Shown here piece by piece: positions 19,697-24,901 of a stretch of 64,000 bases of DNA. Source of the stretch: Spirochaetia bacterium (GTDB lineage Bacteria > Spirochaetota > Spirochaetia > UBA9216). The stretch lies in assembly GCA_963675665.1 (NCBI GenBank), contig OY776510.1, positions 2,080,001 to 2,144,000 of the forward strand, read 5' to 3'. Position numbers and translations under genes: made by a program. Position 1 is the first letter of the stretch. Each line of letters begins with the position of its first letter. The notes under the pieces are model-generated. The model was not told where the DNA came from and did not search any database. It was given only the letters and a program-made list of their open reading frames with translations.

Positions 19697-20380
19697 ATGG
19701 ATGGAGCGTTTGTTCAGGCGTTAAAACTTCTTGTCTCTCTGGATCGGGAAACTTACTACATCGCCGGGACATCGCTCCGATTTGCTTTAGCTTCAACGTT
19801 GCTATCGGCATTAATCAGTTTGCCCGCAGGTGCTATTCTGGGGCTGTACCGGTTTCGGGGCAGAAGAATCGTTATAACTGTTCTTAATACACTTATGGCA
19901 ATGCCTACGGTTGTAATCGGCCTGATAATTTATTCCGTTATCTCCCGATCTGGACCGCTGGGGTACCTCGGGCTTCTTTTTAACCCTTCGGCGGTAATTA
20001 TAGGCCAGACAGTTCTTGCATTTCCGATAATTGCATCAATGGTGAATACCAGTGTCGGCCGGCTTGACATCAACCTCAGGGAAACACTGGTGACTCTCGG
20101 CGCTTCGCGTTTCAGGATATTCTTCACTATTATGTGGGAAGCCCGGTTTGCCGTAACTACCGCTCTGCTTGCGGGTTTCGGCAGGGTAATCGGTGAAGTG
20201 GGAGTTTCGATGATGCTCGGAGGCAATATACGGTGGTGGACCCGGACAATAACCACAACTATCAGTCTTGAGACAAGCAAGGGGCAGTTTGAACTGGCTC
20301 TTGCTCTCGGTGTGATTCTGATGGTAATTGCGTTTCTGGTAAATTTTATCACTCACTGGACGGTGAAGCATGAGAATTAG
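19697..20380 (+). CDS. tupB: Tungstate ABC transporter permease
   Basis: MPTVVIGL, SRSGPLG, FGRVIGEVG, GGNIRWWTRTITT. Confidence 0.95.
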   Translation: MDGAFVQALKLLVSLDRETYYIAGTSLRFALASTLLSALISLPAGAILGLYRFRGRRIVITVLNTLMAMPTVVIGLIIYSVISRSGPLGYLGLLFNPSAVIIGQTVLAFPIIASMVNTSVGRLDINLRETLVTLGASRFRIFFTIMWEARFAVTTALLAGFGRVIGEVGVSMMLGGNIRWWTRTITTTISLETSKGQFELALALGVILMVIAFLVNFITHWTVKHEN

Positions 20381-21332
20381 CAATCTGAAATTCAGTTACG
20401 AACCGTGGAACCCTGATAACGGGAATGTTCTGGATATCTCGCGTCTCGACATTCCGGAAAAAGGCTGTCATGCGATTCTGGGACCTAACGGATGCGGTAA
20501 AACAACCCTGTTGAAACTTGCAGCCGGCCTGCTTGTTCCCGAATCCGGAGTTGTTGAGACGAATGCAAATGCAGTAATGGTGCATCAGCATCCTTATCTG
20601 CTGTCGGGAAGCGTATTCAGTAATGTGGCTTACGGGCTTAAGATAAAAAAAATTCCGCGAGATGAAATTGAACGGAGGGTGACCGCTGAGCTTGACCGGT
20701 GGGGGTTACAGGCGTTAAAAGACCGGCATTCACAAAAACTTTCGGGCGGAGAGAAACAGCGTACGGCAATAGCAAGGGCAATGGTTTTGAAGCCGGACCT
20801 TTTGCTGCTGGACGAACCGACTGCAAGTGTGGATCCTGAGAACATCAGCCAGATGGAAAACCTTATCTCAGATATTATTCAAACAGGAACTACAGTTGTT
20901 TTCAGCACTCACCATGTTGATTTTGCATACAGAACGGCCGATTCCATAATAAAACTTGAGAACGGGAAGCCGGTAGAGCATGACGAGAATATGATATCCG
21001 GAAAGATCACCGGACATGACGAATATTTCAATTTTTATGAAGCAGCCGGAACAACATTGTATTGCCCGGGGCGGGACGGAGATTTCCGAAGAGCGGTTTT
21101 TTCTGTTAATGATGTGATTCTGTCCCGCGAAAATATCAAATCCAGCGCCCGGAACGTTATGGAATCTGTTGTTGCAGAAATAATTGAAGAAGGGAAGACC
21201 TGCATGGTAGAACTGAATGCCGGTTTCATTTTCAAGGCAAGAGTATCTGCTGCTTCTGTTAATGAACTTGGACTTGAGAAAGGGCAGAAAATCTTTGCCG
21301 TTTTAAAATCATCGGCTATCAGGTTGTATTAA
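20370..21332 (+). CDS. tupC: Tungstate ABC transporter ATPase with C-terminal TOBE domain
   Basis: GPNGCGKT, LSGGEKQR, LLDEPT; SSARN...LGLEKGQKIFAVLK TOBE. Confidence 0.93.
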   Translation: MRISNLKFSYEPWNPDNGNVLDISRLDIPEKGCHAILGPNGCGKTTLLKLAAGLLVPESGVVETNANAVMVHQHPYLLSGSVFSNVAYGLKIKKIPRDEIERRVTAELDRWGLQALKDRHSQKLSGGEKQRTAIARAMVLKPDLLLLDEPTASVDPENISQMENLISDIIQTGTTVVFSTHHVDFAYRTADSIIKLENGKPVEHDENMISGKITGHDEYFNFYEAAGTTLYCPGRDGDFRRAVFSVNDVILSRENIKSSARNVMESVVAEIIEEGKTCMVELNAGFIFKARVSAASVNELGLEKGQKIFAVLKSSAIRLY

Positions 21333-22107: not shown

Positions 22108-23004
22108 TTACAGAATACGGTATGTTTTTCTGAAGCTGAATTTTAAACCCTCGTGAATCATGTAAAGCGACGTCAGAAAAATAATATAGGCCCCGAGCGG
22201 ACCAAAAAGAATCCATTGATCGTTGTATATATAAAACCTTGCCTGACCTACCAGACCAGCCCATTCATGAAGCCTTGAATTGTAAGTCGGAGGGTCAAAA
22301 GTCATCACTGTGGCGCCCAGGAAAACTCCGAAAATTCCCATCTGGCCTATTGTGTTAAGTACCGAAATCATCTCGCCTATAAAAAGAGTAAGCAGCCGTT
22401 CTTTCAGAAAAGGAAGAATATGATGGGTTACAAGATAGATGTTTCCGGCGCCTGAAGCCCTTGCTGCTGTGAAGAATTCCTTGCTGGCAAGTTCCCTGCC
22501 TACAGCTTCAATAGCTGCGGCGCTTGCCGGTGTTCCGAAAATCAGTACTATAACGGAGAAAATCGATATCAGTATAAGCTCGTTAAACGGAAAGTTTATT
22601 GAGATTCTGGCGAGAACAAAGTATATGAATACAATCTGGGGCAGGGCATTCAGAGGAGTTGCTTTTAACATATAGATATTTTTACGCTGGTTAAGCGCAG
22701 CTGAAATTCCGAAAAGACCTCCGATTAATACTTTCAGTGCTGCAAGAATGAATGTTATTCCGACAGTCCACCTGGCTCCGTAGAGTATAAGCGATAAAAT
22801 ATCTCTTCCGCCTTTGTCTGTTCCGAGAAAAAAGTCTTCCGACGGAGGCGAAGGAGGCGCTACAAGCTCCCGACCTTTATCAGTTAATTCATACCTGACC
22901 TGTTCGGAAAATGTTAAAGGGTATTTGGCCAGTGACGGGCCGAAAAAAGCTGCAATAAGTACAGGCAGCAGCAGCACTGCGCCGATAACTAATCTGAAAT
23001 TCAT
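22108..23004 (-). CDS. OppC/DppC-like ABC permease
   Basis: PPSEDFFLGTDKGGRDILS, EFFTAARASGA, HILP, EWAGLVG; ATG overlaps the upstream stop. Confidence 0.88.
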   Translation of the reverse strand: MNFRLVIGAVLLLPVLIAAFFGPSLAKYPLTFSEQVRYELTDKGRELVAPPSPPSEDFFLGTDKGGRDILSLILYGARWTVGITFILAALKVLIGGLFGISAALNQRKNIYMLKATPLNALPQIVFIYFVLARISINFPFNELILISIFSVIVLIFGTPASAAAIEAVGRELASKEFFTAARASGAGNIYLVTHHILPFLKERLLTLFIGEMISVLNTIGQMGIFGVFLGATVMTFDPPTYNSRLHEWAGLVGQARFYIYNDQWILFGPLGAYIIFLTSLYMIHEGLKFSFRKTYRIL

Positions 23005-23930
23005 GGTAAACCCCGTCTGAATATAATTCCGATCAATTGAAGTACGGCAAAGAGGCAGATATATACCGCCAGATAAAGAAGCAGCAGCATCAGGATGGTG
23101 TTGACAGTACATGAGTACTGGCTGATATTGTTGAAAAGAAATGATGTTATTCCCTTGTTGTTAAACATCAATTCCGTTATGAAAAGATTTGAGAACAATA
23201 TTGCAAGAATTTTATGTAAATCGCCTTTTATATAATGGATTGCAGCAGGTCCGACATGGAAAAAACGTATTTGCCGTGCAGAAAGCCCTTTGGACCGGGC
23301 AAAAGTAATATACTGCTGGTTATTGACGTCTTTCAGCCAGCTTCCTGTTGTTCTGAGAATGTAAAGGACGGGGTAGCAGCTTAATATCAACAGCGGTAAA
23401 AACACCGCACGGTCTGAGGCGGATGAAGTATATATTCTGACAAGATTTCCACCGGCAGCCTTGTTAATATAGAAAAACAGGAACTGTATTAAAAATATGA
23501 GAATAAAATCCGGCAGTACTGTCATGAAAGAAAGAAACTCGTAAAAAGCCGAATTCCGCTTTTTTTCGGCTGTCAGGAGACTTGCGGGAATCCCGATTAA
23601 CAGGCTGATAACCCCTGAAAGACAGAGGTATGATAATGATACTTTAAAATATCTGGGGGCCTGGTTCAGCCAGTTTCTCCTGGTTTTGCCTTCGCGGTAA
23701 TCGAATACTGTACCTTCCTTTATCTGCCTCATGTATAAAAGAGGTTTCTTCCAGATGTTGTCGGGATGAAAATGAATCTTATACAGTTTTTTTCCGATAA
23801 AATCCGGGTCTCCTGAATTTGAATAATACTGAATAACGGATGGCCGGCCGTATGAAAAAAGAGACGGCAGGGCAGCTATTAGCAGGACCAGGGCAAAGAT
23901 CAGCAGAATCATTGCGGCATAATGTTTCAT
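23001..23930 (-). CDS. OppB/DppB-like ABC permease
   Basis: LPDF, QYITFARSKGLS EAA loop, NLFITELMFNNKGI. Confidence 0.88.
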   Translation of the reverse strand: MKHYAAMILLIFALVLLIAALPSLFSYGRPSVIQYYSNSGDPDFIGKKLYKIHFHPDNIWKKPLLYMRQIKEGTVFDYREGKTRRNWLNQAPRYFKVSLSYLCLSGVISLLIGIPASLLTAEKKRNSAFYEFLSFMTVLPDFILIFLIQFLFFYINKAAGGNLVRIYTSSASDRAVFLPLLILSCYPVLYILRTTGSWLKDVNNQQYITFARSKGLSARQIRFFHVGPAAIHYIKGDLHKILAILFSNLFITELMFNNKGITSFLFNNISQYSCTVNTILMLLLLYLAVYICLFAVLQLIGIIFRRGLP

Positions 23931-24748
23931 TGCGGTTCCTCAGGAAATATATGGTCGGCAAGACCGTTCCAGATTACAGGATGAGGGAATGTTCGGTATT
24001 CTTCTCTTTCTATTTCGCTGTTATTAAAGAAAAGTGTTTCTTCCAGTTCGTTTACAATTCCCCGGGAGCGTGCAGTTGCCGTCAGTTCAACTGCCTCGTT
24101 TATAATTTGTACTATTTCCGTTTTATCTGAATCCTGCAGCATCTTCTTGTTTAAAAGGTCAAGAAAATACCACGAAAAAAGCGGGAGTCTTGTCTGTCCG
24201 TCGATTCCCCTGCTTCGAATATTGACTTCGTCAAAGCGGCATGAAGCGGCAAGCAGTGATTTCGGCAGTTTCCTGCGCAGGTAGCCGAGCCTGCCGTTTA
24301 CTACCCATACCGTTTCCGGTTTTCCGGTTTTAAGAGGGTTAAGAAATTCGTCCCCCCACGGAGCATCTGCCAAAAGAATTTTCCCTTTGCAATCCAGAGA
24401 ACGCCACAGGTCGGGCATCCAGAGATTCCATTCGCTTGACAGGAGAACTCTTGAACTTCCGGTTATCAGCATAAAGATACATACTTCATCCTCCTGAATC
24501 CTGTCGATTTCTTTTATAATAACATCCACAGTTTTATCAGAAATAAACTCGGAAAGAATGAGCATCTGCGAAAATGTTTTTCTCATTTCTGAAATTATGC
24601 TTTTAAAATACGGTGTTTGCAGGTAATTTTCAGGATCACAGATTATTATTACAGTTTTATTGAAATCAACTGACACAGTTTCCACCCGCCCGCTGCAGCC
24701 GGGAAGAAAAAACAGGAGAACCGGAAGTATAAAAAGCAGACGTCTCAT
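23927..24748 (-). CDS. Lipoprotein, probable inactive caspase/C14-like fold
   Basis: Lipobox LPGC; ordered motifs IFMLITGSS / ILLADAPWG / LLAASCRFDE / LFSWYFLDLL / PHP match caspase-fold segments with the His and Cys replaced (fold call is inference). Confidence 0.6.
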   Translation of the reverse strand: MRRLLFILPVLLFFLPGCSGRVETVSVDFNKTVIIICDPENYLQTPYFKSIISEMRKTFSQMLILSEFISDKTVDVIIKEIDRIQEDEVCIFMLITGSSRVLLSSEWNLWMPDLWRSLDCKGKILLADAPWGDEFLNPLKTGKPETVWVVNGRLGYLRRKLPKSLLAASCRFDEVNIRSRGIDGQTRLPLFSWYFLDLLNKKMLQDSDKTEIVQIINEAVELTATARSRGIVNELEETLFFNNSEIEREEYRTFPHPVIWNGLADHIFPEEPQ

Positions 24749-24901
24749 TAGTTATTGTCCCGCTTGAAAAGACAGCGGCCTGTTAATGGCCGCTGAAAAA
24801 GGAGTTAAGTAAGTTATGAAAATACCGACGGCCGTAATAAGCCGACGACCTTCGATATTACGATTAATAATATGCTCCAAAAACTCAGGGGTCAAGTCTT
24901 T

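Follow-up and report, generated by a model that had tools for sequence, protein, structure and literature searches.

A minus-strand cassette of three genes from a spirochaete, located within the 64,000-nucleotide window (the whole stretch of DNA that was analysed), joins a lipoprotein that has a predicted caspase-hemoglobinase fold and lacks the catalytic dyad (P0001, 273 aa, 23927..24748) to an OppB/DppB-like permease subunit (P0002, 309 aa, 23001..23930) and an OppC/DppC-like permease subunit carrying the motif EWAGLVG (P0003, 298 aa, 22108..23004), the latter two being assigned by profile matches. The three reading frames that an earlier note had described from the letters of the sequence are present on this strand, as are the two ATGA overlaps (23927-23930 and 23001-23004) by which they are joined. 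The cassette is real and apparently undescribed; a search of a literature collection that covers few subscription journals and no supplements returned no description of a lipoprotein-OppB-OppC system and no paper on the stand-alone OppB/OppC family of Spirochaetia and Bacillota to which the permeases belong. The explanation that we tentatively place ahead of the others, at somewhat less than even odds, is that of a conserved three-gene cassette whose dead caspase lipoprotein acts as the periplasmic partner of the permease, likely catching or presenting a peptide-type ligand, with OppD/F-type ATPases supplied from elsewhere.

The earlier note had proposed a caspase-hemoglobinase fold for the lipoprotein and had named the predicted structure as its test, and on that structure the lipoprotein is a member of clan CD with such a fold (C14/C13). 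The model has a mean pLDDT of 87.5, matches legumain (4aw9; Z 14.9, rmsd 3.0, 189 residues aligned) and caspase (4pry; Z 14.8, rmsd 3.2, 196 residues aligned) and finds almost exclusively clan CD proteins among the best 40 matches listed, while the best Foldseek match has an E value of 2e-6. At the level of sequence profiles, P0001 matches archaeal caspase-family proteins end to end with a probability of 99.5% and an E value of 2e-22, and the match to full caspase domains covers residues 20-273; the motifs quoted in the note are present and lie on the strands proposed for them. Searches of solved structures by sequence with P0001 and with alignments A1 and A2 gave nothing significant, and neither Pfam nor NCBIfam recognises the lipoprotein: PF00656 was not matched at E<=1 by the 15 members of A1 nor at E<=0.01 by P0039 and P0040, its cut-off being passed by 5 of 9 distant relatives scanned. 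The observation that the protein is too small to be an OppA holds, as its 273 residues compare with about 500-600, the fold is a different one and PF00496 is not matched.

Loss of the protease dyad extends through the family, as His occupies the catalytic-His column in 0/17 members as compared to 7/8 archaeal-type relatives, and Cys occupies the catalytic-Cys column in 0/17 as compared to 8/8. The His column is variable in the family and the Cys column is mostly Pro (P, S or G). The replacement of the dyad by Ser and Pro, as originally read, is correct for Pro130 at the Cys column and has to be amended at the other position, since an ungapped alignment places Gly97 (24458..24460, minus strand) in the catalytic-His column and Ser98 opposite the Gly of the HG motif. 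By the dyad criterion the lipoprotein is not an active C14 peptidase, a reading taken from the alignment. The stretch Asp128-Ala129-Pro130 (24359..24367, minus strand) combines the replaced catalytic Cys with an S1-type Asp that is kept in 17/17 members. The acidic S1 pocket of TbMCA2, as set out in the available part of its description, comprises Asp95 of alpha-1 and Asp211, two residues before the Cys (PMC4357240). Compared with dyad-bearing relatives, the lipoprotein has an L1 loop shortened by 12 residues, and the alpha-1 Asp/Asn column varies within its family, so that, judging from the alignment, about half of such a metacaspase-type pocket appears to be gone and only about half retained. 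A family-specific insertion of 18 residues follows the Cys loop (residues 144-161; 24266..24319, minus strand), identified from the alignment and the model, in which W148, G152, L157 and K160 are conserved and where model confidence is low. The hydrophobic leader ends at Cys18 (LPGC; 24695..24697, minus strand), the predicted lipid-anchor cysteine; a lipobox pattern was found in 15/17 members, the other two, including P0001, having a Cys after the leader, and PF08139 was matched in 2/15. By its leader and Cys, P0001 would be a bacterial lipoprotein that is presumably lipid-anchored and periplasmic.

The lipoprotein family is small, with about 20 sequences, and in the sampled genomes was confined to a single family of spirochaetes. 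None of 7995 candidates proved to be a longer, fused form, a result of little weight. A scan of genome contigs returned 0 loci with the single sequence and 3 with an alignment as query, and the intact C14 lipoprotein encoded at 3.205 Mb of the same genome gave no tblastn match to P0001. Linkage to the permeases in other genomes had also been named beforehand as a test, and the order lipoprotein-OppB-OppC recurs at 4/4 other loci whose DNA spans the lipoprotein gene (L005, L006, L007 and L020), at which the sequences flanking the cassette are unrelated to one another. Stop and start codons overlap in all three other loci inspected by sequence, and the overlapping frames persist down to 38% protein identity. 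As an indirect proxy for linkage, 12 of 17 lipoprotein homologues have an OppC homologue on a longest contig of equal size; three of the remaining five are on contigs below 2 kb, and P0009, a protein of the linked family on a 117-kb contig, has no OppC record of equal contig size. The 17 family sequences share 26 invariant columns, and dN/dS values of 0.11, 0.12 and 0.08 were obtained for the lipoprotein, OppB and OppC, respectively, from one genome pair, as dS is saturated in most pairs; these values show the cassette to be under purifying selection.

A natural exception is provided by sequencing runs X3, X4 and X5, which represent one sample and lack a 199-bp stretch between 10-nt direct repeats (24361..24559), so that codons 64-130 of the lipoprotein are removed. 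This strain is otherwise about 98% identical and both of its permease frames are open. The near-identical proteins that accompany the broken allele include an OppC altered at the invariant P51 and the near-invariant Y28, which may be taken as a weak hint of joint decay, and the allele offers a ready-made comparison.

Both permease subunits match PF00528, with Opp2B (E 4e-13) and Opp4C (E 4e-19) as the best NCBIfam models, at 49-69 bits, far under the curated Opp/Dpp/Nik cut-offs of 300-590. They carry EAA-type coupling loops, identified by alignment, at OppB residues 205-225 (23256..23318, minus strand), where G215 is invariant, and at OppC residues 176-198 (22411..22479, minus strand), where A180, A181, G185, H195 and P198 are invariant in 21/21 sequences. 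In a quick tree the family stands on a long branch apart from canonical OppC, and the lipoprotein-linked OppC proteins form one clade (SH-aLRT 99). OppB of this clade has an insertion of 20 residues in the loop after TM1, predicted to be periplasmic (residues 31-50; 23781..23840, minus strand), which was seen in the alignment in 5/5 lipoprotein-linked and 0/23 unlinked sequences; as linkage and insertion each arose once, they count as one evolutionary event. The stand-alone family was found in 25 of 401 Spirochaetia genomes and also occurs in Bacillota. None of 20 other spirochaete genome loci (0/20) and none of 20 more distant metagenome loci carries the lipoprotein. The pair can evidently work without it, and the lipoprotein is thus a clade-specific add-on rather than the reason for the absence of OppA and an ATPase. 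Other sub-clades adjoin different peptidase-type genes: in a second clade OppC is directly followed by a lipoprotein of M1 aminopeptidase type whose HExxH-x18-E motif is intact (3/3 close homologues in the 401 genomes, and L025), and C69 dipeptidase-family genes flank three further loci, one of these neighbours keeping the first Cys and those at L068 and L069 having lost it.

The statement that neither an ABC ATPase nor a family-5 binding protein lies nearby stands for the binding protein, which along with OppD/F genes is absent from the 64-kb window, and fails for the ATPase, as a motif scan located one, the only one in the window, at 20370-21332 on the plus strand, with 776 bp between it and the OppC stop codon. 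This gene occupies the third position in a TupABC operon of the tungstate type, which is complete and lies on the strand opposite to the cassette, and we reject it as the permease motor since it belongs to an operon of its own on the other strand; L005, L006, L007 and L020 also have no such gene in their flanks, and L019 has one. Genome-wide, three family-5 binding proteins and four OppD/F were matched, all outside the window, and the genome contains two complete opp operons and an orphan family-5 binding protein. OppA and OppD/F were likewise absent from the co-directional gene run at 20/20 other genome loci, some of them cut by contig ends, while at 3/20 (L082-L084) a dppBCDF operon adjoins the pair in tail-to-tail orientation. 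The presence of OppD/F in 24/24 carrier genomes was set aside as uninformative on ATPase borrowing, because 384 of the 401 sampled genomes have OppD/F. Kinases, sigma factors and regulators are not among the conserved neighbours, and a PilZ-domain gene follows only in L020 and L016. Upstream of the cassette (24773..24895, minus strand) the sequence contains a promoter-like site (24895-24867) and two hairpins, the one at 24795-24773 being terminator-like and lying 25 nt before the lipoprotein start codon. A conserved leader RNA was rejected, as the region is not conserved in four relatives and Rfam gave nothing beyond two snoRNA matches at chance level, and an ornithine/lysine decarboxylase-family gene upstream was discounted as a conserved neighbour on comparison with other loci.

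In the arrangement that we favour, the lipoprotein without its dyad would serve as a dedicated periplasmic partner of the stand-alone OppB/OppC, capturing or presenting what may be a peptide-type ligand and perhaps contacting the 20-residue OppB insertion, and the permease, probably an importer, would draw on OppD/F-type ATPases encoded elsewhere. Such a cassette would have originated with the recruitment of a clan CD protease, itself exported, to a place beside an already stand-alone permease pair, with subsequent loss of the dyad, shortening of L1 and gain of the 18-residue insertion, matched by the new OppB loop. Complex prediction for OppB, OppC and the mature lipoprotein, for which the mark is 0.32, twice gave a score of 0.00, the controls not having been folded, and is weighed here neither for nor against contact. 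While the partner role is likely, that of a peptide receptor is a hypothesis. A bolder version, which we regard as possible and rather doubtful, holds that the role of substrate-binding protein in the importer falls to the dead caspase itself, which replaces OppA and docks on the OppB loop with borrowed ATPases, and that the OppBC family is a modular peptide gate with unrelated peptidase folds recruited as interchangeable front ends (caspase, M1 or C69; live or dead). A little less credible again is that the permease is an alternative membrane core for the ordinary Opp/Dpp systems of the cell, with OppA and OppD/F acting in trans and the dead caspase being a co-regulated helper (a chaperone, scaffold, regulator or upstream peptide trap) that does not dock substrate. 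The scarcity of the lipoprotein across the permease family, the dppBCDF operons next to L082-L084, the orphan binding protein that could act in trans and the near-identical strain that keeps its permeases after losing the lipoprotein core are all consistent with a helper; the clade-specific OppB insertion and the frame overlaps kept to 38% identity, however, fit a direct partner better.

The remaining explanations appear improbable to us, in descending order. If the trio were a non-transporting sensor, with an external cue being bound by the lipoprotein and passed on through the permease-like pair to a partner in the cytoplasm, the absence of a co-transcribed ATPase or binding protein at any of 20 genome loci, the low permease scores and the long branch would be accounted for, and clan CD folds do act in trans-envelope signalling elsewhere (DdvA, in the portion of PMC11506125 available). 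Such a relay is at odds with the invariant coupling-loop residues and the want of a conserved regulatory neighbour; since the ATPase-coupling loops are kept, we consider transport powered by borrowed OppD/F more likely than signalling alone. Slightly less probable is a still active hydrolase whose catalytic site has moved elsewhere, generating the peptides for import by the permease, a task that M1 and C69 neighbours in the sister clades may likewise perform. Cys170 in 15/17 and His at position 102 in 13/17 members would suit this, as would the intact M1 motif and the one C69 neighbour with its first Cys, but P0001 has Leu102, three others have Gln, two members are without Cys170, and the C69 neighbours at L068 and L069 are themselves without the first Cys; Cys170 looks structural because its column is also Cys in 5/8 relatives with a normal catalytic Cys. 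Least probable is a historical linkage, in which the protease gene is decaying and travels with the permease pair with no common function. Its single origin and the deletion of the gene core in one strain agree with that, and against it are the lipoprotein dN/dS of 0.11, the 26 invariant columns, a gene order that is constant while all flanking genes differ and the matching OppB insertion.

All known type I ABC importer binding proteins have the two-lobed periplasmic-binding fold. A caspase fold in this role would, if true, supply such an importer by a novel route, and would give a bacterial pseudo-caspase a rare defined job. That sub-clades of the stand-alone OppB/OppC adjoin exported peptidase-fold proteins provides a first testable lead on the function of this family.

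The nearest known counterparts are the family-5 importers OppABCDF, which resemble the cassette in the order of a heterodimeric OppB and OppC, in PF00528 and in the EAA-type coupling loops; they differ in that the cassette operon is without OppA and OppD/F and its permeases form a separate long-branch family. The usual place of oppA in opp operons, seen also in the two opp operons of this genome, is here held by the caspase-fold lipoprotein. The lipoprotein shares the W-N-x-W-x-P-x-x-W and PHP motifs with C14 caspase-family proteins of Bathyarchaeota and Theionarchaea (among them TET63387.1 and MBU7042622.1, in the clusters of P0052 and P0048), most of which also have an N-terminal export signal; unlike the lipoprotein, these keep His (7/8), Cys (8/8) and the full L1, and are without the 18-residue insertion. 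The pseudo-orthocaspases of cyanobacteria and alphaproteobacteria are, like the lipoprotein, prokaryotic caspase homologues with a substituted dyad, described as p20-only with long C-termini and dyads of YS, YA, FS, QC or HA in a paper whose main text, where available, mentions no lipoprotein, transporter or spirochaete (PMC6426788); by comparison, the dyad columns of P0001 hold G and P and its domain reaches the C-terminal strand. DdvA, a periplasmic TPR-CHAT anti-sigma factor of Myxococcus xanthus, likewise ties a clan CD fold to a membrane complex, whereas its His-Cys dyad is kept, it is one polypeptide with a membrane helix and it controls a sigma factor, according to the part of PMC11506125 available; its structural match to the lipoprotein model is weak (Z 6.5). 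The caspase-like domain at the N-terminus of Raptor is described, in the available portion of PMC6325617, as a dead caspase fold serving in substrate binding, and both Raptor (5wbi, Z 11.3) and c-FLIP(L) (3h13, Z 13.3), which match the lipoprotein model, exemplify the reuse of an inactive caspase fold for binding, albeit in eukaryotic, cytoplasmic proteins that, unlike the lipoprotein, have no link to a transporter.

The cassette, flanked by a PLP-dependent decarboxylase gene and, on the other side, by a convergent Nudix hydrolase gene, is encoded on the minus strand and specifies a 273-aa lipoprotein (P0001, 23927..24748), an OppB-like permease (P0002, 23001..23930) and an OppC-like permease (P0003, 22108..23004), the reading frames, lengths and both ATGA overlaps being present as described in the earlier note. 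Both permeases match PF00528 and also permease models of the Opp/Nik/Dpp type, those of the B-type for P0002 and those of the C-type for P0003; every one of these scores falls far short of the curated cut-off. The statement that no ABC ATPase is encoded nearby requires amendment, as a motif scan of the window found one such ATPase, although its gene is part of a tungstate-type operon encoded on the opposite strand. The source genome (G000; 5.15 Mb, a single contig) holds four OppD/F-type matches and three family-5 binding proteins, of which all four of the former and two of the latter form two complete operons at ~0.48 and ~2.47 Mb, and no opp permease adjoins the remaining binding protein, at 1.455 Mb; the gene of this orphan (G000:C1:1455259-1456869) is situated downstream of an amino-acid ABC operon, and its product is a candidate partner in trans. 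Upstream of the lipoprotein gene, positions 24773-24895 contain a promoter-like site and, after it, a pair of hairpins (fold z-score -3.2), of which the one nearer the gene is terminator-like and 25 nt ahead of the start codon; these may represent an attenuator or the terminator of the decarboxylase gene, the region showing no conservation in relatives and no family in Rfam.

P0001 was not recognised by Pfam, NCBIfam or PDB sequence searches, and the Atlas groups it with C14/C13 clusters (0.93-0.94). It has 14 homologues at 39-55% identity, the named records among close homologues being Spirochaetales/Spirochaetia MAGs, and searching 1.84 billion representatives with a profile yielded 18 proteins, among them 2 further full-length members, 4 fragments and 9 weak matches from another group, of which 5 pass the PF00656 cut-off; two clusters of these weak matches hold 'caspase family protein' records from Bathyarchaeota and Theionarchaea. 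Comparison of the 17-member family profile with that of eight relatives of the dyad-bearing type (eight of the nine weak matches, P0053 being omitted as partial) gave a probability of 99.5% (E 2e-22, 249 columns). The caspase fold proposed in the earlier note is upheld by structure comparison of two AlphaFold2 models, one built from 15 rows (pLDDT 67.0) and one from 25 rows (pLDDT 87.5, pTM 0.86), for both of which the top structural matches are clan CD proteins (Foldseek E 2.5e-5 and 2.1e-6, respectively); the first gave Z 13.8 to Dronc, and the second Z 14.9 to legumain, 14.8 and 14.5 to caspases, 13.8 to GPI transamidase and 13.3 to c-FLIP. The dyad-bearing relatives are present in the second alignment and absent from the first, with the same predicted fold obtained from both. 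Proteins P0044-P0053 constitute an exported caspase-family group, partly from Bathyarchaeota and Theionarchaea, with a W-N-x-W-F-P-x-x-W motif, in several cases a C-terminal membrane anchor, and weak or absent Pfam recognition. A separate lipoprotein-like protein over the PF00656 cut-off is encoded at G000:C1:3205117-3206061.

The loss of the catalytic His-Cys dyad was confirmed, but the residue in the His column of the window's protein is Gly97 and not Ser as claimed. Across the ungapped region of the family, the His column holds nine different residues and His in 0/17 members, and the Cys column is occupied by Pro (13/17), Ser (3/17) or Gly (1/17); the relatives retain His in 7/8 and Cys in 8/8. 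Asp128 is invariant in the family and matches the position of the S1 Asp which, in the available text of PMC4357240, lies two residues before the catalytic Cys of TbMCA2 and MALT1. Because loop L1 is 12 residues shorter than in the relatives, the alpha-1 Asp/Asn column is lost, and an extra 18 residues (144-161), among them conserved W, G, L and K, have been inserted after the Cys loop, the lipoprotein is, as judged from its alignment, a remodelled pseudo-protease and more than a plain dyad mutant, and ligand binding at the ancestral S1 site is therefore not to be assumed.

The claimed link between lipoprotein and permeases held in other genomes, as the order lipoprotein-OppB-OppC was found in 4/4 other loci with DNA covering the lipoprotein gene (L005, L006, L007 and L020; L002-L004 coincide with L005-L007 and were counted once). 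Flanking genes are unrelated among the four, and stop and start codons overlap at both junctions in L005-L007. By the indirect proxy of an equal-sized longest contig, 12/17 lipoprotein records pair with an OppC record; three of the five unpaired records are on contigs <2 kb and two are not. The dN/dS values for L006 versus L007, on which this estimate rests as dS is saturated for most other pairs, are 0.11 for the lipoprotein, 0.12 for OppB and 0.08 for OppC. The lipoprotein is present in 4/11 genomes of its own family and 0/400 others sampled from the phylum; one genome (G006) carries an OppC of the lipoprotein clade on a contig that stops within OppB. In one sub-clade, the genes after the cassette encode one protein with a PilZ domain and another with GAF/HD domains (L020:6855-11114, L016:1-1465).

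The permease pair belongs to a wider stand-alone family. The OppC profile matches 25/401 Spirochaetia genomes at E<=1e-40, as well as Bacillota proteins and 23 metagenome loci, and in a quick 53-sequence tree (computed without the near copy P0018) long branches lie between the family (47 rows) and canonical OppC. All 14 lipoprotein-linked rows fall within one clade of 19 (SH-aLRT 99), the neighbours of the other five being out of view or cut off (P0036). In the neighbourhood survey suggested in the earlier note, ~9 kb was inspected around 20 of the 26 places outside the clade (six of these 20 being truncated by contig ends), which revealed a pseudo-caspase in 0/20, and an ATPase or family-5 protein within the co-directional run in 0/20. 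In OppB of the lipoprotein clade, TM1 is followed by 20 inserted residues (5/5, versus 0/23 in other sequences, a single one of these carrying a different insertion, of 9 residues), a loop which hydropathy and the usual OppB topology would place in the periplasm. In one spirochaete family (L082, L083 and L084, three of the 20 places inspected; also L032 and L033) the pair is tail-to-tail with a dppBCDF operon and adjoined by a gene labelled by eye as pyruvate:ferredoxin oxidoreductase-like.

Other exported proteins accompany the pair elsewhere. In a second OppC clade (SH-aLRT 99) a lipoprotein of the M1 aminopeptidase type, its HExxH-x18-E motif intact, directly follows the pair (L073:3641-6814, L076:3635-6811, L025:4579-7982 and L062), and its close homologues in the 401 genomes occupy that position in 3/3 cases. 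C69 dipeptidase-family genes, encoding a leader and C-terminal membrane anchor, precede the pair on the same strand with the first Cys intact in L079:1766-3616, and divergently in L068:1702-3528 and L069:1706-3532, where the mature enzyme has Asn instead of its first Cys and the proteins may be dead as well. Such M1/C69-type neighbours occur in 5/20 genome loci, as two or three independent events, and in none of the other 15/20; on a Paenibacillus urinalis plasmid (L041:3175-9627) three family-1 solute-binding lipoprotein genes flank the pair. This neighbour pattern tentatively points to a function connected with peptides and to a habit of associating with exported proteins. Recurring neighbours without a Pfam family are a divergent 285-293-aa lipoprotein (L077:2687-3544, L078:2660-3541) and a TPR-like membrane protein (L066:2472-3533, L026:3636-4724); in a Bacillus-like locus (L029:5082-8912, also L028 and L030) the pair is followed by genes for a 220-aa membrane protein and an HlyD-family adaptor. 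In L034 and L040:3071-4786 a distant OppC-like permease and an ABC ATPase domain (LolD/MacB-like by eye) share a single 571-aa reading frame, preceded by an FtsX-family gene and followed by a second OppB/OppC-like pair; this could be a true fusion or a local rearrangement.

Fold prediction, dyad loss, linkage, selection and the OppB loop insertion form the computed basis of the mechanism that we tentatively favour, in which the lipoprotein would serve the permease as a dedicated periplasmic partner, touching the OppB insertion and capturing or presenting a peptide-type ligand for import presumably powered by OppD/F in trans. The bolder reading, that the caspase fold itself takes the part of binding protein for an ABC importer, is more doubtful. 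It is also conceivable, if rather unlikely, that the lipoprotein is a helper beside a permease using an ordinary OppA. Sequencing runs X1 and X2 are identical to the window, which may derive from them; contigs ~98% identical to it from X3, X4 and X5 (one sample) lack 199 bases between 10-nt direct repeats, removing lipoprotein codons 64-130, and have also gained one base at codon 151. Differences in the permease genes are limited to substitutions and one 3-base deletion. Silent/non-silent counts among the differences listed are 14/5 for OppB, 9/8 for OppC and 3/5 for the lipoprotein, and two OppC changes affect conserved columns, P51 (21/21) and Y28 (19/21); P0075 and P0018 are full-length proteins bearing the same changes. 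The lipoprotein is dispensable in one strain, and the deletion would fit both a permease able to work unaided and a cassette that is beginning to decay as a whole.

That the trio is a non-transporting sensor we regard as improbable; EAA-type coupling loops are conserved throughout the permease family, as expected if an ATPase still docks there. OppD/F are encoded elsewhere in 24/24 carrier genomes, which is compatible with borrowing but uninformative, because 384/401 background genomes also have them. A hydrolase with a moved active site is quite improbable: His at 102 (13/17) and Cys170 (15/17) might together have formed a relocated dyad, but position 102 is Leu in the protein encoded in the window. 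Passive linkage, to be weighed against the order conserved among unrelated flanks, is a slim prospect.

The earlier claim that such a system is undescribed is in keeping with our literature search, which found neither the cassette nor the stand-alone permease family described, the supplementary sequence lists of PMC6426788 and PMC3501461 being places that could include members. Pseudo-variants of prokaryotic caspase homologues are known from the accessible text of both papers, the latter giving 89% dyad conservation and frequent N-terminal helices for Spirochaetes, and in the portion consulted of PMC6325617 Raptor employs a dead caspase fold in substrate binding. DdvA, in the available text of PMC11506125, retains the dyad, unlike the lipoprotein family, which has the predicted clan CD fold but falls outside active C14. 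Although genes for a cognate OppA and ATPase are absent, the cassette has a core similar to that of an Opp-type importer.
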